Positions 9,188 through 64,000 of a stretch of 64,000 nucleotides of DNA are shown piece by piece; position 1 is the stretch's first letter; each line of letters starts with the position of its first letter. Under the pieces are notes generated by a model. That model was not told the origin of the DNA. It made no database searches and worked only from the letters and a program-made list of their open reading frames with translations. Where the stretch lies: positions 930,001 to 994,000 of the forward strand of contig OX597822.1 in NCBI GenBank assembly GCA_951406725.2, given 5' to 3'. Origin of the DNA: Octopus vulgaris (taxonomy: Eukaryota). A program made the translations under genes and the position numbers.

Positions 9188-10367
9188 CCGATCATGGCTA
9201 CAGTTCAGTGACTTAAACCTGTGAAAGGATAAGACAATATTTCTCTGTCTGATTCTCTCCCTCCCTCCATTCCCCCCTTTCTTTCTCTTTATTACTACGA
9301 CACACTCTCTCTTTGTCACTATGACGCATTCTCTGTTTCTCCTTTATACCTTTACACTCTCCCTCTCCCTCTAATTCATGATGTAAGCAACTCTTACCTT
9401 TCCCCTTGCACCCTTCTTTTCTTCCTACCCTCTTTCTTCCCCTCACTCACTCTTTCTCCCTCTCTCTCTATTCTCTTTCACTCAGCTCCTCGTCTTTTTA
9501 CTCGCTCATTATATTTTACCCTCCCCTTTCTTGTTGTCTTTCCTTGTTCTCTCTTTCTGTCTCCTCACACTTTTCTCTCTTACCACTTTCCTCCTACCAC
9601 CTATCACCCGAACCTATCTTTTACTGATTGTTTTTTTTTACGTTATCTTTTCTATTTTCTGTTCTGTTTTTATTGTAAAAATTATTCTATTCATTTGAAG
9701 ATAATCAAATTTCCAGTGGGCTTCGTTGTGTCGCGTGGAAGTGTCCATGATTTATCACTTCCGATTCATGATTAGGGGATTGTGGGTCCGACGACAAATT
9801 GCATGGCTAATTCAAACTAAATAAGTCACAACAACACGCATACTTCATCTCCGACGACAATACCGACCTTTAAACTATGTAGCCATCCATCCATCCAACC
9901 AGCCGTCCAGCCATCCAGGCATCCAGTAATACCACCATCCAACAAACCAGCCAACCAGCCTGCCTGTCCAGCCTGTCCAGCCGGACAGGCTTTCATTTAG
10001 CAAAGGCACTAACTATTCCGCCAACCAGCTAAACGAACAACGAATCCAAGTCTCTATGTGGTTGTTCGTTCTGCTAGAAATAGTAACCTAATCTGTACTC
10101 CCCATCCGATCACCGTCTAAGAAAAGGAGAAAGGTAATGTTGGATTAATGTAGCACTGTGTTTATTGTACCAAGGGAGGAGTAAAAATGATTCTGGTTGG
10201 ACTGTCATCATAGGAAAGCTCGATCTTGATGACTTAAGACTAAGCAACAACAATATCAACCAGCTATCCGTGCACTACTTTGCCAGGTAGTCAGGCGTCC
10301 CATCATTCAGCCAAATATCCTGCCACCTACCAAGTCTGTCAACTCTTCAGATAGCTTTCTCATATTG

Positions 10368-10859
10368 GTCAGCCAGTAAGGATATGCATACGATTTGGTC
10401 ATCAAATCTAAATAGAGATTTCAAACTTAAAATCTTCAAAGCCACAGTCGAACCAATTCTACTATATGGCTCAGAAACCCGGACGTTATCAAAGAAGCTT
10501 GAGAGGCGGTTGGATGGAACTTACACCCGCTTCCTTATGAGAGCTCAAAATCTCTCGTGGAAGCATCATCCAACCAAAGTACAAATATATGGGAAATTAC
10601 CACCTGCATCATCTCTTGTGAAAGGGAGAAGAGTCCAGTTTGCTGGACATTGTTGTAGAGCTGAAAACGAGGTAATTTCTACTCTTCTCCTCTGGAAGCC
10701 ATCTGCTCGCGATACCAGAGGGCGCACACTCTCCTATCCTGATGTGATCTCCAGGGATACAGGCATCCAGCAACAGGACCTCCGTAATGCTATGATGGAC
10801 CGTGAGGTCTGGCGTAAATTCCATTGTCTCGACCACGGTCGAACAATGAATGAATGAAA
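10368..10859 (+). mobile_element. 5'-truncated RTE-type LINE 3' end
   Basis: ORF 10384-10857 has KLKIFKATVEPILLYGSET and RRVQFAGHC motifs; (ATGA)n tail; target-site duplication ttctcatattg at 10357-10367 and 10860-10870. Confidence 0.8.
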
Positions 10860-11385: not shown

Positions 11386-11694
11386 GACATGACGGAGCTC
11401 ATTCGATCTCTCCTAGCTTGACCACAGCTAAATTCTTTCGGATGGAGAAAAAGAGAAAGAGAGGGAGAAAGATGGGAGGGAGAGGGAGGAAAGGCACAGG
11501 GGCAGAAAATGAATACACTCCAATACAGGACTGGTACTTTATTTATTGACCCCGAAGATATGAAAAGCAAGGTTGGCCTCGGCGTTATTTGAGCTGAAAG
11601 TGCCGCCGGGAACCAGAATGAATACCACATGACAATCCATCCGATGCTCCGACGACTCAGCTATTTCAATACCTATCTTTTCTCTCTTTTCTCT

Positions 11695-11896
11695 CTTTTA
11701 CTTGTTTCAGTCATTTGACTGCGGCCATGCTGGAGCACCGCCTTTAGTCGAGCAACTCGACCCCGGGACTTATTCTTTTTATAAGCCCAGTACTTATTCT
11801 ATCGCTCTCTTTTTGCCGAACCGCTAAGTGACGGGGACGTAAACACACCAGCATCGGTTGTCAAGCAATGCTAGGGGAACAAACACAGACACACAA

Positions 11897-11935
<39 letters not shown>

Positions 11936-12076
11936 CGACAGGCTTCTTTCAGTTTCCGTCTACCAAATCCACTCACAAAGCATTGGTCGGCCCGGGACTA
12001 TAGCAGAAGACACTTGCCCAAGATTCCACGCAGTGGGACTGAACCCGGAACCATGTGGTTGGTTAGCAAGCTACTT
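11695..12076 (-). mobile_element. SINE family B, 3' portion (host of the ORF1-only array)
   Basis: Aligns with the uninterrupted copy at 27325-27715 up to ggttagcaagctactt; remainder found at 18761-18800. Confidence 0.85.
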
Positions 12077-14319
12077 TATTTCAAAACATTTGCCATAAAG
12101 GCAGTACACAGATTAAGTTAGCTTTGCGGGCTGGACGAGGACATTAATGAGGTGAATGATAATGAAAGAAAGATGATAAGGATGGGAGAAGACAGAAAGC
12201 GCCCGCCGACTTTTGCTTCTCTAAAACATTGTTCTTTTTAAAAAAGATTAACACAAAACGAGGTATTAAACCTCTTACAATTTTTCCAATTTTGGGCTTA
12301 GCAGTCCATTATTAATACAAAACGAGGTATTAATCCTCTTACAATTTTTCAATTTTTGGACTTAAGTCCATTACTAATAATACATATCGTCCTCGAAATA
12401 GCTTGTGCCCGCGCCCTCCACCATCAACCACGCCTCCCTCAGAACGTAGTCAAATTCCGAGTTCGCGTCGCCCGGGACCAAGTTATAGTCTTCATTGAGC
12501 TCATTTAGCCCTAGCGTCACGTCGAACGCCACGGCCTCCACAGCTACCTGCGGAGGCCATTCGGGGTCCTGTGTGAAGGCTAAAGGTGCTCCCTTGTAGT
12601 GCTCTTCCATCACTTTTTCAATTTCTCCTCCTCTATAGAAGAGGACCAATACATTCAGTTCTTTCGTTGGCGGCACAGTTTCCGCCAACGGTATTCCTTC
12701 TCTTGTCGGTGGCACAACCCCAACCGACGTAGTTCCGCGACATTCCGGTGCCACACTGACAGCCGGCAACGTCCCGTTTTTCTTCCTCTTTTTCTTTTTT
12801 TCCCTTTTCAACTGAGGGAGGGTGCGTCTCCTCCGTGGCTGGAAGATTCGCCCTCCTCTCCTCATCCCTATTATCCTTTGGTGAGCACCCATTGTTGCTC
12901 ACCTTCCTCTTCGGCCTCTGCTTGAGGAGTCCTCTGCTTTCTCGGCCGTTATCGTTCCCTCTTCTAGAGGGGTTTTACTTAACTGTTCCGGGATCCTATT
13001 TTGTTCCCGAGGACAGTTCTTCTTTATGTGGCCGGACTCCAAGCACCGATGACACTTAGGGGGGCGACCCTCAAGCATCACCGGGTACCTGCACCCGGCC
13101 ATTTTCAAAAAATCTGGAAAAACCAGATTGGCTGATTGGGTCCACAGGGTCAAAACTGCTTTCGAGCCAACCCAAGCAGCCGCAGGAAGAACTTTTACAT
13201 TGAGGAGCTTAGTTTCGCTGTCACCCAGACCCCGGCGGATAGTCTCCTCTATCCACTCGGGTTCTATGTCGGGTGGCAGTCCGCAGATCCAAGCTTTCAT
13301 CAATTTCTTTTTTTTGTAAGTGGGCAGAATAAGATTTCCTTACCCTCCAAGGGTTCGCTAGCAAATTTGCAAGCCTCTTCAGGGGTGTCAAACAGCAACC
13401 ACACCGTTCCATATTTGACACCCCTGGAAATGAATTTAATTGTTGGCAAATACTCCTCCAACTCCTCCTCAATTGCCGTCTTTTCGAATAGGGCGATGGT
13501 GTCAAGTGCCTTGGAGTAGGTTCTCAACACCACCGTCCTATCTTCACGGTCCTTCAACCACTTTTTGGGTGGTATGATTTCCCACTCCAAAACTTTGTTA
13601 TTTTTCATTGCCATGTTTTTTAAAAAATATATTCAAATTAGACTCAAAAGCAGGAAGAAAAAAGTTCAAAAGTCTAAATAAATTTGATAGATTTTTGAAA
13701 AAACAAAAAGGAGAAAGCACAACAGAAGGGAAGAAATTAACGGAAAGTCGCAATAAAGAAAAAACAAAAGGGGGGGGGGGTAAATGGAGTTCAAAAGAAA
13801 GTTAATAAACAGAAAAAACACAGCAAAAATATTCTGGCCTTGCGGTACTCCCGGCCTGGGTTGAACCTGGAACACCGCAACTGCAACACAACCTCCACAA
13901 AAAGGTCCGAAAGGTAATCCAATAATGGCTTATTTTTATACTTTTCTTGCGAAGTACTCTGACAAGGGAATAAATTCAACAAATCCAAACACAGCACTGG
14001 CTACCGCCAACGGTGATTTTAACAGTAACTGTATTGAATTCTGAGGATACGCCCCTCCACTGTTTTTTTTTTTTTTTTTTTTTTTTTTTCAATGAACACA
14101 AAAACGGCAGCCGCCTAGCGCAGGCGAAATTGTCTCAGAGTTGGACACAACCTACTGAAATAATAATTGGCACGCAATAAATTATGCCCAACTCACAATA
14201 AACAAAATCACTTACCTCGACAACTTTCCGTTTTTGGTCTTTTTTCTTTAGTTGGAAGGAGCTTGTTACTCACGTCCACTCTAGCTCAACAGGAAGCAAC
14301 CGACTAACTGCGCATGTGT
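12077..14319 (-). mobile_element. ORF1-only L1/Tx1-like non-LTR element, unit 1
   Basis: Bounded by target duplications 12061-12076 and 14320-14335; CCHC ORF1; short 3' UTR ending aaata; no RT. Confidence 0.8.
12374..13614 (-). pseudogene. gag-like ORF1 (RRM-like N-terminus plus zinc knuckle CHRCLESGHIKKNC), frameshifted
   Basis: ORF pieces 13614-13300, 13303-12899 and 12892-12374; homologous to units 2 and 3. Confidence 0.75.
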
Positions 14320-14335
14320 GGTTAGAAAGCTACTT

Positions 14336-16271
14336 TATTTTATATAATTTGCCACTAGGGCAGCACACAGAGTAGTAGCTACGGGCTGGACAAGGACATT
14401 AATGGATGATGGTGGTGGTGGATGAAGATGGTGATGGGAGAAGTCGAAAGCGCCCGCCGACTTTCGCTTCTCTAAAACAATGTTTCAATTCACAATGATT
14501 CAAATTACATAAAAAATGTTCAACAATTCTCCTCGTCAGGTCCCCGAAGCAAATTGTCTTGCCGCCTGCAGACAACTCTGCGACGACAAGTCGGGGCCTG
14601 CAAAGAGAAAAGTAAAATCTTTCCTTTCAAAGGTCTCTGCGACCCTTGACAAAGTATCTTCCGTTACTTTTTCCGCAGCTACCCACGGAGGCCATAACGG
14701 ACTCCTTGAGCCGACCGTGCCCTTACGTTCTCGGTCACCCAAGCCATTCAAAAATCTTTCCACCTCCTCTCCCTTGTGGTAAAGGAGGAGAAGCATCTCC
14801 TCTTCACAGGAAGGGACCTCACACTGCTCCGTCAGTGGCACACTTCCTACTGGCGGAGCCTTGTTCGCGGGTGGCACACATCCCACCCGCGGCTCCGTCG
14901 GCGACACAGAAACGTCAGTCGTCCGACCTCTCCTTTTTCTCCTCCTTCTTTTGGGGGAGACTGCTGACCCAGGGGACTCCGTCACCAGACACGGGGGATT
15001 GCTATCCCCCTCCGCCCCCTGTTGCTCGCCTGTCTCTTTCTTTTCGTGGAGGCAACCTCCTCCACGACTTCCACCGTCTCCCCCTCCAATGAGGGGGCGG
15101 CGGGCGCCTTTTCCCCTTTCTGCTCCGGGGCACCACCACGGCCCTCGGGACAATTCTTCCTGATATGTCCGGGCTTCAGGCACAGGTGACACTTGGGGAG
15201 GCGACCCTCGAGTATCACCGGGTACCTGTGCCCAGCCATTCTCAGGAAGTCCGGGAATTTCATTTCTCCCACGGCCACCGGTGTCCACAGGGTCAAAGTT
15301 GCCTTTTACCCCTCCCAGGCGACCGCGGGAGCCATTTTCACACTCAGTAGTCTGGGTCCGCTATCCCCCAGGCCTCGCCGGATGGTCTTCTCGATCCATT
15401 CCGCCTCCGTGCCCGGGGGCAGCCCACACACCCAGGCTCTTTTTACTTTTCTGCCACAATACGAAGGGAGGAACAAAATTTCCTCTCCCTCCAGTGGCTC
15501 GCTAGCAAATCTGCTAGCTTCCTCGGGGGTACCAAACAGCAACCACACCGTTGCAAATTTAGTCCCCCGAGAAATAAATTTTATAGTTGGCAGGTGGTCC
15601 CCCAACTCTTTCTCTATAGTATTCCTGTCGAAGAGGGCAATGGCTCCACGCGACCTAGAATAGGTTCGTAGGACCACCGTCCTCTTCTCAAGACTTTCAA
15701 TCCACCGCTTGGGTGGGACGACCTCCCATTCCAAAGCGGTGGTTTCTTTTGTTGCCATGTTTTTTTTTTAAATAAATGTATTCAGAATAAAACTAAAAAA
15801 CGAGAAGAAAAGGAAATCCGAAGAAAGTCACAATGAAAAAAGGAGAGAGTCAAATAAAGTTAAAAAGAAAGTCAAATAAAGTTAAAAAGAAAGTCAATAA
15901 CACAGCAAAATCCTTTTGGCCACTTGGTACTCCCGGCCTAAATCGAACCAGGATCGCACAACTTCCACAAAAATTGGTGTAAAATTGGTAGTTCTTCACA
16001 GCACAATACAATTCTCACAATTCGAAGACGGATACGCCCCAAAAATTTTCTCAGCGAGAAAAATATATTTGCCACATGTCGGCAGAATCAGAATTCTGAA
16101 TCCAGTAGGACTTCCTGCATGTAAAAAACAATTCTCAACAAAAACTCCCACTGGACCCAGAAAACAGAATCTTACCTTACATGGGGCTTCCAAAGTTTCA
16201 ATTCAAGACGGCTTCAAAAGCACATCTTCACTGCTTCAGTAGCAAACACAATACTGACTCGCACATGCGCA
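14336..16271 (-). mobile_element. ORF1-only L1/Tx1-like non-LTR element, unit 2
   Basis: Bounded by target duplications 14320-14335 and 16272-16286; 3' UTR shared with units 1 and 3. Confidence 0.8.
14536..15758 (-). pseudogene. gag-like ORF1 (zinc knuckle CHLCLKPGHIRKNC), frameshifted
   Basis: ORF pieces 15758-15306, 15296-14982 and the C-terminal part of 15288-14536. Confidence 0.75.
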
Positions 16272-16579
16272 GTTAGCAAGCTACTTTATTTCATTTAATT
16301 TGCCACAAGGGCAGTACACAGATAGTAGCTACGGGCTGGACATAGACATTAATGAATGATGGTGATGAAGTGAAGATGTTGATGGGAGAAGACGAAAGCG
16401 CCCGCCGACCCCCGCTTCTCTAAGACAATGTTCAATGAATACATTTAGTAAAATGTTCAAAAATGTTCAGAATGTTCAAAAATGTTCAGAATGTTCAAAT
16501 TACATTTTTGCAGAGGAGGTAATAAACCTCCTCTTCAAATGTTCAAAATGTTCAAAAAGTGTTTAACAATTCTCCCCGT

Positions 16580-17808
16580 CAGGTCCCCGAAGCAAATTGT
16601 CTTGCCGCCTGCAGACAACTCTGCGACGACAAGTCGGGGCCTGCAAAGAGAAAAGGTAAAGTGCCTTCTTTCAAAGGTCTCTGCGACCCTTGATAAGATA
16701 GCTTCCGTTACTACCTTTCCGCAGCTACCCGCGGAGGCCATAACGGATTCCTTGAGCCGACCGCGTCCTTGCGCTCTCGGTCACCCAAGCCATTCAAAAT
16801 CTTTCCACCTCCTCTCCCTTGTGGTAAGGAGGAGAAAGCAACTCCTCTTCACAGGAAGGGACCACACTGATCCGTCAGTGGCTCACTTCCTACTGGCGGA
16901 GCCTTGTCCGCGGGTGGCACACATCCCACCCGCGGCTCCGTCGGCGACACAGAAACGTCAGACGTCCGACCTCTCCTTTTTCTCCTCCTTCTTTTGGGGG
17001 AGACTGCTAACCCAGGGGACTCCGTCACCAGACACGGGGGAATGCTATCCCCCTCCGCCCCCTGAGCGTTCTTTGGTGGGCAACCGTTGTTGCTCGCCAG
17101 CCTCTTTCTTTTCGTGGAGGCAACATCCTCCGTCTCCCCCTCCAATGAGGGGACGGCGGGCACCTTTTCCTTTTCATGTTCCGGGGCGGCACCACGGCCC
17201 CGGGACACTTCTTCTTAATATGTCCAGGCTCCGAGCACCGGTGACACTTGGGGGCGCGTCCCTCAAGCATCACCGGATACTGGACCCGGCCATCTTCAGG
17301 AAGTCCGGAAAAACCAGACTCTTGGCCGACTGGGTCCACAGAGTCAAAGTGGCCTTTGACCCTTCCCAGTTAGCCGCAGGCTGCATTTTAACGTTGAGGA
17401 TCTTGGCGTCCCTGTCACGCCAGACCCCGGCGGATGGAAGTCTTCCATCCACTCGGGTTCAAAGCCGGGCGGCAGGCCACAGACCCATAAACGTAACAAT
17501 TTTTCCCCCCTGTAACTGGGGAGAAACAGAATTTCATTGCCCTCAATGGGCTGGCTTGCAAATTTGCAAGCTGCTTCAGCGGAGTCAAATAGCAACCATA
17601 CCGTTGCGTATTTGACTCCCCGTTGAATATGTTTAACGGCTGGCATATAGTCTGCCAGCTCGTTCTCAATGGTGTCTCTCGGAAAAACCATTATGGTGTC
17701 GAGTGACTTTGAATATGTCCTCAGCACCACGGTTCTTTCCTCGAGTTCGTGCAAATATTTTTTGGGAGGTGTTAATTCCCACACAGTGAATTTCTTTGCC
17801 TGTGCCAT
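16580..17808 (-). pseudogene. gag-like ORF1 (zinc knuckle CHRCSEPGHIKKKC), multiply frameshifted
   Basis: ORF pieces 17808-17344, 17452-17270, 17339-17025, 17208-16849 and 16741-16535; 3' boundary approximate. Confidence 0.7.
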
Positions 17809-18124
17809 AACGTAAAATACAACAGTTCAAAATGATAAACTAAAATTAGACACAGAAAGGAGAATAAAAATGCAACAGAAGGGAAGAAATAAAATTAAAA
17901 ATGGCAGTTCAAAAAAGTTTTTAACAAATAAATAATAGACAGAGAAAGAGAGTTCAAATTCAGGCAAAGGAATTCAGTTTTTTTTTTTTTTCCACTTCTT
18001 CGGCCAGAATTGTAATCCAGTGCCAAATGCATTGGTAGAACCCTTGGTAAATAATCCTTGGTAATCCGTGGACAACACAACGACAATTTCAACAATAATT
18101 TTTCCAGACGGACTATGCCGCTTC

Positions 18125-18718
18125 AAAATTACAATTTCTTTTCACTCGACACAGGCAGAAAAATTATATCCGGAGTAAAGTGGAGCCTTATTATTTGCTA
18201 AAAAATATTAAATGCTAAAAAACATTCATGCAAGTAATAAAACTTCACTAAACTCGCAAAAACATAAAACGCCTGCCCGTAGTCGATTCGAACGTTCAAC
18301 AATTCATGTTGAAACAACGCAACATCAATACAATTTTCCTTCCACTCGACACAGGCAGAAAAATTATATCTGGAGCAAAGTGGAGCCTCATTATTTGCTA
18401 AAAAATATTTAATGCTAAAAAACATTAATGCAAGTAATAAAACTTCACTTCGCTCACAAAAATACAAAATTCCTACCTTTAGTCGATTCGAACGTTCAAT
18501 ATTTCACGTTGAAACAACGCGACATCAATACAATTTTCTTTCCACTCGACACAGGCAGAAAAATTATATCTGGAGCAGAGTGGAGCCTTATTATTTGCTA
18601 AAAAATATTTAATGCTAAAAAACATTAATGCAAGTAATAAAGCTTCACTTCGCTCGCAAAAATACAAAATTCCTACCTTTAGTCGAGTCGAAAGTTCAAC
18701 AATTCACGTTGAAACACG
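18125..18718. repeat. 200-bp tandem repeat, about 3 copies, in the 5' UTR of unit 3
   Basis: cactcgacacaggcagaaaaattatatc recurs at 18143, 18343 and 18543. Confidence 0.9.
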
Positions 18719-18760
18719 TGGCATCTGGAGCAGCAAAAAAACACGTCTGAACAGTTCAGT

Positions 18761-18800
18761 GGTTAGCGAGCTACTTACCACACAGCCACTCCTGCGCCTA
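18761..18800 (-). mobile_element. SINE family B 5' head (A box), separated from 11695-12076
   Basis: Minus strand aggcgcaggagtggctgtgtggtaagtagctcgctaacc matches the head of 34668. Confidence 0.85.
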
Positions 18801-19386
18801 TCTCACTTATTAACCAATCAATCGATTCCTCGATACATTGATCCGCTGTCGTATCTTCTTAATAATCGAGATCCGTAAACATCTGGCCATCACCCCAAAC
18901 ATTAGCACTTCCATTCACTTGTCTCATTTAGTAGTGTCATTTTCCCTATGTATTTAACCATCAGCTAGCTGTGTCACCCTTTATCAAGCCGCTTGTAAAT
19001 CTATTCAACCCATTGTTGACCCAATGATCTATACAACCACCAACCACACCGTTAAACCACAAACTCAGTCACTTATCTGACCATCTGACTGTCTGACTAC
19101 TAAAGCAACCATAACTCTTACTGTTAAGCTAATCCTTAAGCCAGCTAGTTTACCTGACTATCATTAGGGCATTAACCATGCGTCAACATAAACTCAGAAC
19201 TGCAAAACCATTAAACTAATCGACCGCCTTTCATTGATCCGTCTCAGAAATCGTCCAGCCTTCGGCTCTTCCTACACGATCCGGCTACCCATCCATTCAT
19301 TCATTCACCCGTTACTCCATCCATCCATCCATCCATCCATCCATCCATCCATCCATTTATCCATTATCCGTCAGACCACCTATCTG

Positions 19387-38556: not shown

Positions 38557-40898
<2,342 letters not shown>

Positions 40899-46854: not shown

Positions 46855-49149
46855 TGCACCATTGTGCGAGTAGTTTACTGTACGTAATAGGAGCTCGGTC
46901 GTGCGAATTTTTGTCGTGACGTAGGAGCGGAAATCTGCAGTACGAGCGAGTTTCATACAAACGACCGCTACTCGGCTCTGAGTTCGCGCCCGCTCTCCAA
47001 ACAGGTACGGTCTCCGCTCGCTCAGTTCACGTGTTTATCTCGTTGTGGTAGCAACCTTGTTGTGTTTTCCAAGTGCTTTTGCTTAGTTTGGGGCATTTTT
47101 TGCTATCATTTTATAATAATTAGTTGTGTTAGCTATGGGTCCTAAGAAGGTTAGTCCAAAGGATAGTGCTGAGAAGAAGAAAAAGCTGATTGCGATAGAA
47201 TTGAAGAAGGAAAACACTGATAAACATGAGAGGAGTGCGTGTAGTGGACATAGCACGTTAATACAAACGAAGTACATCGACGATTTGGACCATCCTAAAG
47301 AAAAAGGTCGAGACCAAGGCGGTTACAACAGCAACTCACATCTGTCCACGAAAATGATGGAAAAATTACTTCCCTTGTGGATCAACGAGAAGCAACACGC
47401 AGGGGATATGATTACGGAGATCATCTTCTGTGAGAAAGCATGAGCGCTGTATAGAGATTACCTGAAGCAGAACCCTGGAACATCGATGGAGGAGACATTA
47501 GCAGACGCATTTAAATCCAGTTGCAGCTGGTTTGATAATTTCAAGAAGAGGACTGGTGTTCATAGCATCGTCAGATATGGAGAAGCAGCGGGTTCTGACA
47601 CGAAGGCAGTTGAAGATTTCGTGAGTGAATTCCGTCAGCTCATCGCAGCCGAGGTGGGTACATCGCACAAACCGGTATTCAACTGTGGTGAAACTGGTCT
47701 ATTGTTTTTGAAAAAAATGCCGAGAGAAACATATATAATTTCAGAGGAGAAGAAAATGCCAAGTCATAAAACCATGAATGATGTGCCAATGCAAGTCAGT
47801 CGAGACTTGAAGATTAAGCCGCTCTTAGCCTACCATTCCGAAAATCCACGAGCGTTCAAGTCGCACAAAATCCTGAAGGAGAAGCTGCAGGTAATGTGGA
47901 TGGCAAACGTTAAAGCCTGGGTCAACAGGCAATTCTTCTCCAAGTGGGTCAACCTTGTCTTCGGACCAGTAGTGAAAAAGTACCTTCTGGAGAACAATCT
48001 TCCTCTCAACACCCTCCTCATCCTCGACAATGCTCCTGCTCACCCACCTAACCTCGAAGATGATATCCTGGTCGAATTTAAATTCATAAAAGTTCTGTAT
48101 CTTTCACACAGCACCACCCCTATCTTGTATCCCATGGACCAATAGGTGATTCATAATTTTAAGTAACTGTACACCGAATACCTGTTTTGTCGGTACTTTG
48201 AAGTCACCAAAAATACAAATGTAATCCTTCGTGAGTTTTGGAAGGAGCACTACAACGTTGTAAACTAACTGAAAATCATCGATATGGCCGGGCAGGATGT
48301 AATGAGGAGATCGCTGAATTCTGCGTAGAAGAAGCTGTGGCCTGACTGCGTATCTGAAAGAGACTTCAAAGGGTTTGAGTTTGAGACACATGTATTTGAG
48401 GAGATGGTATCTCTTGGCAAGTCCATGGGCATCGAGGTTGATGATGGGTATATTAACGATCTCGTCGAGGAAAACTCAGAAGAGGTGATGAGAGATGAAC
48501 TCCTGCAGTTTCACGAGCAGCAGTATTTGGATGCATTGGAGGATAGTATAGCAGAGAAGGCTAGCAGTATTAGTGTTGGCAAAGTGGCAGTATGTTTCTG
48601 AATTTGTAGAAAAATATCATCTTGCAAAAGTAGCCACAGGTCGTGCAGCTGCTTTATTGAAATGACTTTGCTCTCGTGCATTTTCGTAACATTTTGAAAG
48701 GCAGGAAAAAACTGACTTCTCTTGATATGTTTCTAATGAAACGACCCACAAGAATAAAAAGTGAAGATAGGGTTCCAAAAAGCCTAAATTAAGCGGAGAG
48801 AGAAAACCCCAGAAATTGTTCTTCCTGAAGTTTTAATGGAGGAGAATCTCCTTCCAAACAGTAATCCGCCTCCTCGCTCGATCGTCTTCATCGCTCACAA
48901 ATCGTCCCATCTTTAAGGTTAATAAAATAAGTTTATATATTTCTGTTGCATTCTCTTTCGTTAGAATTGTCATTTTACTTGTAACTACACTTTTTTTGTT
49001 TTAAAACGCATAAAAAATTACTTTTGAGTGGTTTTAGTGGGCTGGAACGGATAAATTATATTTTAATTAATGTCAATGGGGAACATGGATTTGTAAAACG
49101 AGTAAAAAGTAAAACGTAAGATTTAAACTCATAGTGCGAGGTATTACTG
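46855..49149 (+). mobile_element. Tigger/pogo DNA transposon with decayed TIGD1-like transposase (about 47135-48865)
   Basis: MGPKKVS start, HTH CENP-B-like FKSSCSWFDNFKKR, DDE_1 motifs VFNCGETGL, LLILDNAPAHP and PMDQ; right TIR gaggtattactg-TA; left boundary approximate. Confidence 0.85.
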
Positions 49150-54621: not shown

Positions 54622-56018
54622 ACACTTTATTAACACTTTAGCCGTCCCAGTTATAAGTTACAGCTACAATATCCTTAACTGGACACTAAATGAACTAACC
54701 AAAATAGATAGGAAAACAAGAAAAATAATGACAGGATCTAGGATGCATCACCCAAATTCTGACTTAGAAAGGCTATATATACAACGTATAGAAGGTGGCA
54801 GAGGCCTTATAAAGCTGGAAAACTACTATAAAATAACCACCACAGGACTGCAAAAATACCTACTTCAGAAGGAAGGAAAACTGATACAAAAAGCGGCAAA
54901 ACACGGGCAAAACGAAAAAACTGTTCCCAGTATTTAAGGAAGCTGACAAATACAAACAAGAAATCATACTACTTAACAAATATGTAGAAGAAGAAGAAGA
55001 AGAAGAAGAAGAAGAAGAAGAAGAAGAAGAAGAAGAAGAAGAAGAAGAAGAAGAAGAAGAAGAAGAAGAAGAAGAAGAAGAAGAAACAACAAAAGCTATA
55101 AAACAAATGAAATCCAAACTAAAACTAGAACAGCAACAGACCATGATAAAACGATGGCAAGAAAAGCCCCTTCATGGCAAGTACTGGACTAAACTAAATG
55201 CAAAAGAAATAGACAAAGAAAAATCCCAGCAGTGGTTGAGAAGCTCAGGACTCAAAGCAGAGACAGAGGGATTTTTAATTGCAGCACAAGACCAAAGCCA
55301 TCCCACCAGAAATTACCAAAAACATGTAATGAAAAGAAATATAACAAGTAACTGCAGAATATGTGGAGATGGACAAGAAACAATAAATAATATTATCTCT
55401 GGCTACCCAGTCCTGGCTAAGAAGGAATATATTCACAGACATGACAGAATTGGGACCTACATACACTGGAAGCTATGCCAACATTATGGAATAACAACAG
55501 AAAAAGATGGTATAAGCACCTGCCAGAAAAGGTCACAGAAAACGAGAAAGCAACCATACTCTGGGATATGTCAATACACACAGATAGAGAAAATAAGGCC
55601 AACAGACCAGATATGGTTGTCAGAGATCATGAAGAAAAAAAAATGCTTTCTAATTTATGTATCAATACCAGCAGATGACAACGTGTCTCTAAAAGAAATC
55701 GAGAAACTTTCAAAATACAAAGACCTGGAAATAGAGGTAACTCGAATGTGGAATCTAAAAACAGAAACAATTCCTATCATAGTAGGTGCATTAGGCATGA
55801 TAAAAAAATATTCAGACAAATACATAACAAAAACACCAGAACTTACAAACACATATAACATACAGAAAATTGCACTACTAGGCACTGCACACATCCTACG
55901 CAGAACACTTTCAATACAGTAACCATCAGAGCATCACAACAATCACAGCACATACCCAAGGCATATAGAGCTGCGCTCGGTAGTGAAGTGAAAGCACGAT
56001 ATAAAAACAAAACTACTG
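54622..56018 (+). mobile_element. 5'-truncated Dong/R4-clade LINE, subfamily A
   Basis: MHHPNSDLERLY...GGRGL, CRICG zinc knuckle, RHD and PD..D endonuclease motifs; frameshifts; (GAA)n expansion 54986-55085; (AAT)n flanks. Confidence 0.85.
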
Positions 56019-56644: not shown

Positions 56645-56727
<83 letters not shown>

Positions 56728-56728
56728 C

Positions 56729-58600
56729 AGAAAATATAAACATCAACTATGGAATTTTTCAAGGTGACTCACTTTCACCTTTAATATTCTGCATAGCCCT
56801 AATACTCCTTACAAGTGAATTAAACAGAACAGGGTATGGGTATAAAATTGCCAATAAAAAAATAAGCCATCTATTTTATATGGATGACTTAAAACTCTAT
56901 AGTAAAGACGATAATGAACTTGAAGTCCTATTGCGCACTGTGAAAGCATTCAGCGATGACATCGGGATGGAGTGTGGACTTGAGAAGTGTGCCAAGGCCA
57001 CTTTCCAGAAAGGGAAAGTGAAGACCACAAATTCAGTCGTGTTAGATGTTGACACGGTCATAAGAGAGCTTGAGCAAGAACAAACATACAAATATTTAGG
57101 GATAAATGAAGGCTCTGGTATTCAGCATGCAAGCATGAAAGAGAAGATCAGGAAGGAATGTTATAGGAGAGTTCGTGCAGTCCTGAAATCTGAACTAAAT
57201 GCACGTAACAAGGTGTTAGCTATAAATTCCTTAGCAGTTCCAGTTGTTACTTATAGCTACAATGTGTTGAAATGGAATATGAGTGAAGTAAAGAATATAG
57301 ATAGGAAAATACACAAGCTGCTGAGTTGTAATAGGATGCACCACCCAAAGGCAGACGTAGATCGCCTTTACCTTCTCAGAGCCCAAGGAGGTCGAGGCCT
57401 GATCCAATTTGAACTAGCTTACAAAACAACCACAATTGGACTGGCCAAATATCTCGAAATAACGAATGACTGGATGCTAAAGCACGTGGAAAATCACGAG
57501 AGACGAAAGAAGCTTCATTCTATCATAAAGGAAAGCAAAAGATTTGCTATTGATCTCGTGCAGGATACCCAAACTGAACAACCCGAGGGAAGTACGGCAA
57601 CTATTGTTGCAAAGAAGGTAAAAATAATGGCAACGAAAAAAGCGCACGAGCAATTGGCTGATAGGTGGGAGGAGAAACCTCTGCACGGCAAATATGTGGC
57701 CCGCAGCAAACAAGCTGATGTTGACCAGAAGCAAACCCATCAGTGGCTACGGAGCTCAGGGCTAAAAGCAGAGAGCGAAGGTTTCATCCTGGCTGCTCAA
57801 GGTCAAAGCCTATTAACCCGGAACTACCAGGCCAATGTGATGAAAAATGGAGCAGACCCCAAATGCCGATTCTGCAACGACATGATTGAAACAGTGGACC
57901 ACCTATTCTCTGGATGTAAAGTCTTAGCACCAGGGGAGTATAAATTAAGACATGACAGAGTTGGCCAATATCTACACTGGCTAATTAGTCGGCATTACAA
58001 TATCAAAACTGCCGACAAGTGGTATAATCACCACCCTGAGGCTGTAACTGAAGGAGAAAATGTAACCATTCTGTGGGACTTTCCAGTACATACAGACCGA
58101 ACCATCAAGGCCAATAAACCAGATATTGTTGTGAAAGACCAAAACAATAAAGTTTGCTTATTGATCGACATGAGCATCCCCTGTGATCATAATATCTCAG
58201 CGAAAGAGTTTGACAAGCTCAGAAAATATAAAGACCTACTCATTGAAATTGAGAAAATGTGGCATCTCAAGGCGGTTACAATACCAGTGATCGTAGGAGC
58301 ACTAGGAATGATCAAGAAGGGAACCGAAAATTATATGAGAATGATCCCTGGCTTACCATCCCTGCAAGAAGTGCAAAAGATTGTCTTAACTGGTACATCA
58401 CACGTATTGAGAAGAGCATTATCGATGTGAGAACTGTTGCTGCTCATGTATTTTAACTTAACTTAAAAAAAAATTTAAAAAATGAACGAACTATTGAGTT
58501 TGGTGTAATGGCCTACCAATGTATACTATGAGTTTCTTTGCCCTAGGAGTCGGGAAGACACCCGGCAAGAAATGGAAGCAAATTTGAAAGAAGAAAAAAA
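56729..58600 (+). mobile_element. 5'-truncated Dong/R4-clade LINE, subfamily B
   Basis: Starts in RT (GIFQGDSLSPL, FYMDDLKLY); uninterrupted to the stop at 58430; flanked by (AAT)n. Confidence 0.9.
56880..58430 (+). CDS. partial reverse transcriptase, CCHC knuckle and restriction-like endonuclease (frame open from about 56729, no native start)
   Basis: YMDD, YKYLGI, CRFCNDMIETVDHLFSGC, RHD, NKPDIVV..LIDMSIP, K..KY. Confidence 0.75.
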   Translation: MDDLKLYSKDDNELEVLLRTVKAFSDDIGMECGLEKCAKATFQKGKVKTTNSVVLDVDTVIRELEQEQTYKYLGINEGSGIQHASMKEKIRKECYRRVRAVLKSELNARNKVLAINSLAVPVVTYSYNVLKWNMSEVKNIDRKIHKLLSCNRMHHPKADVDRLYLLRAQGGRGLIQFELAYKTTTIGLAKYLEITNDWMLKHVENHERRKKLHSIIKESKRFAIDLVQDTQTEQPEGSTATIVAKKVKIMATKKAHEQLADRWEEKPLHGKYVARSKQADVDQKQTHQWLRSSGLKAESEGFILAAQGQSLLTRNYQANVMKNGADPKCRFCNDMIETVDHLFSGCKVLAPGEYKLRHDRVGQYLHWLISRHYNIKTADKWYNHHPEAVTEGENVTILWDFPVHTDRTIKANKPDIVVKDQNNKVCLLIDMSIPCDHNISAKEFDKLRKYKDLLIEIEKMWHLKAVTIPVIVGALGMIKKGTENYMRMIPGLPSLQEVQKIVLTGTSHVLRRALSM

Positions 58601-63383: not shown

Positions 63384-63449
<66 letters not shown>

Positions 63450-64000
63450 TTTATTATTATTATTATTATTATTATAGAGATATCGATAACGGTTATGACG
63501 ATAATTATAGCAATGGTAATACTGGCGTTGATATTAATACTACAAATGACGACAATAATAACAGCAAAATCACGAACGATTTACCTAATACTACCCCAGC
63601 CACTACCAGCAACACCTCATCTCTCTCCCCAAGTAACCATCGTAGAATTGATAGCTGCAACTATAGATCTGGGACAGACTGCTCGCTGCAAGCCCAATGC
63701 AGAAGATTCAATGTCGTATACCAATGCACCGTTCACAACATAGCAAATAACTCCTATAGCTACTACATTGGATCTAACTCAAATTTTAAACAAAGATATT
63801 ATGCACATTTAAACACCTTTAAATATAAAGAGAATAATCATTTTCGCATCACTAGCCAGCCATGTACACCATTTAATTAATAGAAGAATACAATATAGAC
63901 TTTCCTGGTCTATAATAGACTTTGGTATCCCATATCAGGGCCAGCACTCCATTTGTGGACTCTGCTTAAACGCAGCCCTCAAAAAATTTAACCCACTACT
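62690..64000 (+). pseudogene. Penelope-like element (Neptune-type) RT thumb, linker and GIY-YIG endonuclease, decayed, running off the window
   Basis: FFKVVESNFPRNH..FNRFTLKLS*SSTPNIESIITSCNK; then CNYR...CSLQAQC..NVVYQCTV...YYIGS..FKQRYYAH...SWSII...CGLCL at 63655-63975. Confidence 0.8.

Follow-up and report, generated by a model that had tools for sequence, protein, structure and literature searches.

A candidate 3′ recognition module in ORF1-only LINE-like elements inserted into a tRNA-derived SINE of Octopus vulgaris

How is the RNA of a retroelement that encodes no reverse transcriptase (RT) of its own marked for copying? The question is raised by a 64,000-nucleotide (nt) stretch of Octopus vulgaris DNA (GenBank assembly GCA_951406725.2, contig OX597822.1, positions 930,001 to 994,000 of the forward strand; hereafter the window, in whose coordinates all positions are given), a piece of microsatellite-rich animal DNA. 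On its minus strand three units of 2.2, 1.9 and 2.5 kb (units 1, 2 and 3) form a head-to-tail array at 12077-18759, within a tRNA-derived short interspersed nuclear element (SINE). The units are non-autonomous elements resembling long interspersed nuclear elements (LINEs), each with a decayed open reading frame (ORF), and they encode only an ORF1 of the RRM-RRM-CCHC type. An endonuclease-RT ORF2 is absent from all three, and only 110-160 nt separate the last ORF1 stop from a hairpin that lies about 135-145 nt before each unit's 3′ end. An ORF1-only element must recruit the endonuclease-RT of a partner. We lean towards the view that the last ~140 nt of each unit constitute a cis-acting 3′ recognition module of the stringent type, with priming on read-through target sequence. 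The hairpin is a real feature, and the module is probably functional.

The 3′ hairpin module and its conservation

The hairpin motif (S1) of the minus, or sense, strand was matched three times in the 64 kb, once in each unit, and not at all in 100 shuffles (mean 0.00), which bears out the original prediction of an invariant 10-nt loop in all three units. The CGAAAG/CTTTCG inner stem expected throughout holds for units 2 and 3; unit 1 has CAAAAG/CTTTCTG instead, a substitution plus a 1-nt insertion, and keeps its 12 pairs through a second bulge. In unit 3, the change of CGAAAG to CGGGGG had been expected to leave pairing on the sense strand only, and the sense strand indeed forms 12 pairs (−15.0 kcal/mol), against −7.1 kcal/mol for the antisense strand. 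The arms of S1 are 73-100% paired in the predicted ensemble.

Downstream of S1 lie a spacer, a 6-mer (S2) complementary to part of the loop, and a short terminal stem-loop (S3). The predicted complement to the loop is present in all three units, and an H-type pseudoknot can be drawn with L1=3, L2=1 and L3=49-54 nt, in which a single change in S2 (C or U opposite G) is tolerated. The TGCC/GGCA stem of S3, followed by AATAAA abutting the target, was likewise found in every unit. The spacer varies as freely as foreseen: with indels, 14/33 and 15/31 positions are identical between unit 1 and units 2 and 3, respectively (42-48%), and in all three units it is free of any G before ATTAATG.

The 3′ module is conserved far above synonymous sites; at fourfold-degenerate sites, identity between units is 35/77 (units 1 and 2), 9/19 (units 1 and 3) and 8/23 (units 2 and 3). 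The stem, loop and partner columns (hairpin arms and loop, S2 6-mer, S3 arms) are identical at 46 of 50 positions between units 1 and 2 versus 59 of 97 in the rest of the module (Fisher p=3e-5), and at 44 of 50 versus 60 of 95 between units 1 and 3 (p=0.001); these columns were picked after the alignment had been seen, so the p-values are optimistic. In the last 200 aligned columns unit 1 is 64-72% identical to the others, up from ~50% per column over the 700 nt before them, and blastn aligns its tail to theirs at 79-80% over 173-184 nt. Fully conserved unpaired blocks comprise the loop (10/10), CATTAATGTC (10/10), CCATC and GTCCA. Such patchy conservation, with invariant blocks around a variable spacer, points to selection and against a neutral swap of tails; it fails to separate selection on shape from selection on sequence.

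Among the named pairs of S1, S2 and S3, 65 of the 66 cells pair, versus 34-55% with slid partners. Changes on one side affect 4 of the 22 pairs, in addition to the one substitution-plus-insertion, and pairing is kept in all of them; if changes of the three observed types fell at random, the chance that every one of them kept pairing would be about 0.39 x 0.15 x 0.32 = 0.018.

The three adjacent A>G changes in the single long stem of unit 3 (16410-16412, minus strand) compare with an expectation of 0.002 chance triplets. RNA editing is heavy in cephalopods, and as a lead only the triplet might be ascribed to ADAR editing of an RNA intermediate, fixed by reverse transcription. Against this, units 2 and 3 show no overall A>G excess (12 A>G versus 9 G>A among 55 changes), another mixed cluster of changes lies at 16661-16667, and the first A of the triplet has a 5′ G, which ADAR disfavours (PMC8809894). 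If true, an ADAR footprint would prove that the hairpin forms in vivo.

A second hairpin, GAGG...CCTC, was noted in the 3′ untranslated region (UTR) on the minus strand. It is long in unit 3 (16513-16533; −18 kcal/mol with flanks) and short and duplicated in unit 1 (12324-12338 and 12260-12274); being missing in unit 2, it was rejected as part of the core module.

Insertion site in a tRNA-derived SINE

The array splits one tRNA-derived SINE, and the break falls between an A-box-like and a B-box-like motif, named by the A-box and B-box consensus. A 15-17-bp target sequence is found at all four junctions (18776, 16286, 14335 and 12076). All three units end at the same base. Their terminal AATAAA shares its last one or two A with the target copy, and poly(A) is missing from every 3′ junction. 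Elsewhere in the window, the sole match to the target at three or fewer mismatches is an uninterrupted SINE.

Of 7 other SINE matches in the window, the two closest to the empty site share 84-87% identity with it. Since the fourfold-site identity between the units is far below this identity of the host SINE to its relatives, the units diverged, with ORF1p under selection, long before this SINE copy arose, and they arrived separately. Evidently, three units inserted separately at the same base of one SINE. Local tandem duplication was rejected as their origin, as their synonymous divergence far exceeds that of the host SINE from its relatives. Insertion appears to be sequence-specific, as seen at this one locus.

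Six uninvaded SINE copies (34668, 27715, 2364, 19650, 28279 and 20996) were aligned; they have a slightly different target-site sequence and no insertion, and targeting may be specific to a SINE subfamily. ARAGORN found 0 tRNAs in the 64-kb window and the empty site yields only a low-threshold tRNA-like fold, so the target is the head of a SINE and not a tRNA gene. The features of the locus are listed in Table 1.

Table 1. Features of the array and its insertion site, in window coordinates
Feature	Position	Strand	Remarks
5′ part of interrupted tRNA-derived SINE	18777-18799	−	A-box-like motif just before break
Left copy of target-site duplication	18760-18776	−	
Unit 3, ORF1-only element	16287-18759	−	ATG at 17808; several frameshifts
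Unit 3 hairpin S1	16386-16420	−	Loop 16399-16408; three G-U pairs from AAA>GGG at 16410-16412
Unit 3 candidate pseudoknot partner S2	16331-16336	−	
Unit 3 terminal stem-loop S3	16301-16313	−	
Unit 3 AATAAA and internal target copy	16272-16290	−	AATAAA 16285-16290; target copy 16272-16286
Unit 2, ORF1-only element	14336-16271	−	ATG at 15758; in-frame stop at codon 151, then frameshift; last stop 14536-14538
Unit 2 hairpin S1	14438-14472	−	12 bp, one bulge; loop 14451-14460
Unit 2 candidate pseudoknot partner S2	14381-14386	−	5 Watson-Crick pairs and 1 G-U
Unit 2 terminal stem-loop S3	14350-14362	−	
Unit 2 AATAAA and internal target copy	14319-14339	−	AATAAA 14334-14339; target copy 14319-14335
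Unit 1, ORF1-only element	12077-14318	−	ATG at 13614; last stop 12374-12376; reading frame broken
Unit 1 hairpin S1	12186-12221	−	12 bp, two bulges; 10-nt loop 12200-12209; pseudoknot strand 12201-12206
Unit 1 spacer L3	12132-12185	−	54 nt; G-free part variable, followed by the conserved blocks CATTAATGTC and GTCCA
Unit 1 candidate pseudoknot partner S2	12126-12131	−	6 Watson-Crick pairs
Unit 1 terminal stem-loop S3	12091-12103	−	4 bp, variable 5-nt loop
Unit 1 AATAAA	12075-12080	−	Last 1-2 A overlap target copy; no poly(A)
Right copy of target-site duplication	12060-12076	−	Up to 17 bp
3′ part of interrupted tRNA-derived SINE	11702-12076 (11702 approximate)	−	B-box-like motif 31 nt after break

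Proposed role of the module and its alternatives

If the module is a recognition signal, the RNA would fold into the 12-bp hairpin, whose loop would pair with the 6-mer 49-54 nt downstream to give an H-type pseudoknot, followed by a hinge and then by the small terminal stem-loop. Binding of this fold in trans would fall to the endonuclease-RT of an autonomous partner, with assistance from the ORF1p that the element itself encodes. Transcription would pass AATAAA and continue ~15 nt into the target copy, so that the RNA would carry target sequence; a CA is located ~15 nt downstream of AATAAA in units 1 and 2, a position within the usual cleavage distance. The read-through target sequence would then anneal to the nicked target strand, and cDNA synthesis would start exactly at the element's end. 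Read-through combined with target priming would account for three features: junctions that are identical, ends without poly(A) and units stacked at a single site. R1Bm is cited in PMC7265360 as needing downstream target sequence for accurate starts.

A motif in the hinge, AGCTA(A)CT (12117-12123, 14374-14380 and 16324-16330, minus strand), is complementary to the first target bases, and in each unit the predicted fold has it paired with read-through RNA; it may pair with that RNA or with the displaced strand of the target DNA. The complementarity was rejected as evidence: 3.2%, 3.4% and 12% of 2000 shuffles equal it, and its pairing is outdone by that of at least 12 of 155 other 10-mers from the SINE.

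The original prediction took the structure for the cis signal recognised by a partner RT. What speaks for it is that the units are ORF1-only and without poly(A), that they inserted separately and that the module is conserved; neither two-sided covariation nor, in the window or among longer ORF1-RT proteins, an autonomous carrier of the signal was found. The contrast drawn with the poly(A)-only recognition of mammalian L1 is fair, though usual among LINEs and not a novelty.

A number of results weigh against a recognition signal. An autonomous element carrying the motif was found neither in the 64-kb window nor as a longer ORF1-RT protein. A covariance model of the three units gave no fourth copy in the window (28 other matches, the best at 14 bits, E=0.5), and ORF1-RT fusions were absent from 1831 and 8000 candidates, which is weak evidence; an exact-pattern scan of bacterial and archaeal genomes, a negative control only, gave 0 loci. 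Two-sided covariation, which had been proposed as a check, was seen in 0 of the 22 named pairs and 0 of 33 RNAalifold pairs, with three sequences affording almost no power.

The folding statistics weigh on the same side. The hairpins have only modest z-scores (−1.3 in unit 1, −2.7 in unit 2 and −1.5 in unit 3), and the whole module folds better than shuffles only in unit 2 (3/200, versus 112/200 in unit 1 and 144/200 in unit 3). The helix between loop and 6-mer, although its strands are present throughout, is equalled in 5.5%, 11.9% and 6.3% of 1000 shuffles of the downstream region for units 1 to 3 (5.5-12%); its gain over the plain hairpin is only −0.4 to −1.5 kcal/mol by a rough Dirks-Pierce-type estimate, and in the nested ensemble the unpaired share of the S2 strand is only 41-79%. 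In none of the three units does S3 figure in the minimum-energy fold of the module by itself. We give the candidate pseudoknot about an even chance of forming. With the unpaired blocks no more variable than the stems, what is constrained may be the sequence rather than the shape.

The number of independent observations is also smaller than it seems. The signal was predicted to be common to all three units, and it is; units 2 and 3, however, differ at only 55 of 789 sites over their 3′ halves and thus share a recent 3′ half, which leaves only two independent lineages. Unit 3 is a mosaic: its first ORF1 half is ~75% identical to unit 1 and ~66% to unit 2, whereas after the zinc knuckle it is 93% identical to unit 2 (16287-17808 versus 14336-15758, minus strand). 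This mosaicism suggests recombination or template switching between lineages. Tails of such units are exchangeable, which can raise 3′ similarity without long-term selection.

A structure that acts on the transcript, in 3′-end formation, stability, export or packaging by ORF1p, would leave the RT to see only read-through target or a transient poly(A). The canonical AATAAA is conserved directly downstream in 3/3 units, and ORF1p is a two-RRM protein of RNA-binding type under purifying selection (68 of 103 residues identical versus 12 of 33 fourfold sites), as such a role would have it. We nevertheless hold it unlikely, because the position in the last 140 nt and the candidate pseudoknot-hinge-stem order match the RT-binding modules of R2 (10.1101/2024.11.11.623112) and because a non-autonomous element would need some handle for trans-mobilisation.

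Less probable again is an element at the DNA level, for example a 3′ promoter driving the next unit. Factors would then bind to the GC-rich loop and the CATTAATG palindrome, and the inverted repeat would be incidental. HeT-A has a 3′-end promoter that drives the next unit in its array; the present units are also head-to-tail, the unpaired loop and CATTAATGTC motifs are 100% conserved, and GCGCATG-like and TCAGT/TTAGT motifs stand at the start of units 1 and 2. The observed changes, however, keep sense-strand pairing, including G-U pairs that are relevant only in a single strand, and unit 3 heads the array without a module upstream.

Just as doubtful is the explanation that the module has no special function, the tails being alike through recent gene conversion or exchange, with a hairpin and a 6-bp complement that one ancestral sequence had by chance. 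It would accommodate the demonstrable mosaicism, the hairpin z-scores (−1.3 to −2.7), the chance level of the pseudoknot helix and the lack of two-sided covariation; but a neutral recent swap would leave uniform divergence, whereas conservation here is patchy, and all changes preserve pairing (about 0.018 at random).

That the module is an RNA which cleaves itself or blocks a nuclease, and in this way frees single units from read-through transcripts of the array, is highly improbable: tandem co-transcribed target-specific elements (R1, R2, R4) often use ribozymes and the module includes a candidate pseudoknot, but those ribozymes act at 5′ ends (PMC5786205), an Rfam scan of 11500-19200 gave 20 matches at E≤10 of which none reached the gathering score and none was a ribozyme (best E 0.025), and threading by eye onto the topology of the hepatitis delta virus ribozyme left P1 and the 3′ strand of P2 wanting.

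Related elements, neighbouring features and significance

An uncharacterised protein of Octopus sinensis is the closest relative of the ORF1 protein (65% identity, E=1e-88; 1 match among 419 candidates). A wider search gave 34 proteins at E≤0.001, mostly more distant and ORF1-like, with at least one spurious. The zinc knuckle is matched by Pfam zf-CCHC in 3 of 5 proteins at E=0.002-0.06, below the gathering score; neighbours of the protein in the Atlas are CCHC, ZCCHC3-RBD and RRM clusters, and the predicted model of the ORF1 relative P0002 (mean predicted local distance difference test score 75) matches tandem-RRM structures (best E=5e-5, with low template modelling scores). Between the units, amino-acid identity of ORF1p is 60-66% in the N-terminal and middle parts. 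The ORF1p of the units is of type I (RRM/CCHC), which is found in Tx1-group elements and is not exclusive to Tx1 (PMC5203782). The units probably belong to the L1/Tx1 group; membership of the Tx1 clade itself is likely but putative, none of them carrying an RT for phylogeny. In the database protein P0008, an N-terminus nearly matching the start of unit 1 ORF1 is joined to an integrase domain; P0008 is probably a gene-model chimera, and the near-match implies further copies of the ORF1-only family elsewhere.

ORF1-only LINEs are known in several clades, namely HAL1 (L1 clade), HeT-A (Jockey clade) and Ag-Sponge (CR1 clade) (PMC5786205); like them the octopus units have ORF1p only and would rely on the RT of a partner. 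Three marks of this class, a LINE-type ORF1p, no endonuclease-RT ORF2 and a target-site duplication, were found in the units. HeT-A forms head-to-tail arrays. What sets the octopus units apart from the three known cases is an apparently fixed target in a tRNA-derived SINE, together with a duplication of 15-17 bp and the lack of poly(A).

Tx1L, Keno, Tx1-Mar and the SINEU families, which Tx1-clade elements mobilise, likewise insert into a transposon or into a multicopy sequence of RNA-gene-like type, with copies side by side at the target; Tx1-Mar and SINEU target another transposon and stack on each other (PMC4494074); the RRM/CCHC type of ORF1 is shared with Tx1-clade elements (PMC5203782). 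Unlike the octopus units, Tx1-clade elements are autonomous and SINEU families are non-coding, and no SINE-head target or 3′ pseudoknot was found in the available part of PMC4494074.

Terminal structured 3′ signals are the recognition mode of stringent-type LINEs (PMC3747384), and a conserved stem-loop near the 3′ terminus is what the units have. As in UnaL2, SART1 and a monocot L1 lineage, there is a terminal stem-loop with conserved loop and flanks as a probable recognition signal (PMC3747384, PMC7265360). The plant stringent-type stem-loop shows compensatory changes, whereas the octopus set shows none on both sides; the octopus module is also longer than the stem-loops of stringent-type LINEs and SINEs described there, and possibly pseudoknotted.

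In the 3′ UTR of A-clade R2 elements (avian and turtle), a pseudoknot, hinge and stem serve template recognition, together with 4-nt target pairing (10.1101/2024.11.11.623112). The octopus units resemble these in the order of pseudoknot (here a candidate only), single-stranded hinge, short stem-loop and target-derived nucleotides able to pair with the primer, and in apparently site-specific insertion. A-clade R2, however, is autonomous, targets 28S ribosomal DNA, has a resolved fold within 65 nt and carries a GGAAAAG hinge motif, whereas the octopus units are ORF1-only, target a SINE and have a 12-bp S1 and a loop 3 of 49-54 nt. The GGAAAAG motif is absent from the alignment of the three units, and the Rfam scan of 11500-19200 gave no ribosomal RNA match. 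The likeness to the R2 module would be convergent, and the units are not members of R2. By analogy, the module may be regarded as a stringent-type LINE 3′ signal in its working and R2-like in its layout.

The 5′ regions of the units were also inspected. About three tandem repeats of ~200 bp, 89-91% identical, make up the 5′ region of unit 3 (18130-18725, minus strand), and we take them to resemble L1 promoter monomers. The GCGCATG-like and TCAGT/TTAGT motifs at the 5′ ends of units 1 and 2 (14300-14320 and 16250-16272, minus strand) are similar to each other and presumably resemble NRF1 and initiator sites; an internal promoter is possible. GTAAG splice-donor-like motifs follow ~100 nt after the starts of these two units. 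Their otherwise divergent 5′ UTRs keep a GC-rich block, GGCCGGGAGTACC...GGCCA (13825-13875 and 15905-15955, minus strand), which is flanked by TTTTTG runs, has no Rfam match and is preceded by a GGTTC motif that we take to be B-box-like.

Other mobile elements in the window lie on the plus strand. Three fragments of RTs of the non-long-terminal-repeat type, presumably R4/Dong-like, are located at 56727-58427 (RVT_1, E=1e-11), 54885-55919 and 39666-40310, and two of them adjoin AAT/TAA-type microsatellites; as the window holds no fourth copy of the module, these fragments, including the one at 56727-58427, are without it. Relics of mobile elements are found at 10291-10854, presumably an RTE-like C-terminus, at 47444-48142, a DDE_1 transposase (E=4e-16), and at 63449-63877, which has no Pfam match and which we take to be a possible GIY-YIG-like fragment.

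A search of the literature, with supplements, Repbase and Dfam outside its range, found no description of the octopus family or of its 3′ structure; the ORF1-only family may already be catalogued. One could go further and suppose that an octopus lineage of the L1/Tx1 group independently evolved an R2-like pseudoknot-hinge-stem signal and parasitises a SINE, that the target completes the poly(A) signal, that the transcript has its end in the target duplication and primes on it, and that only correctly targeted copies propagate, a scenario that we consider speculative and improbable as a whole. On present evidence, this is an ordinary kind of signal in an unusual element. The module offers a search handle for the autonomous partner, a SINE-targeting endonuclease-RT. 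If the recognition reading is true, the units would bear on a question that PMC3747384 leaves open, whether stringent recognition goes back to the ancestor of the L1/Tx1 group. They would also show that a site-specific LINE other than R2 can have a template signal as compact as ~140 nt, and would add a second, convergent case of a 3′ pseudoknot-hinge-stem in template choice.

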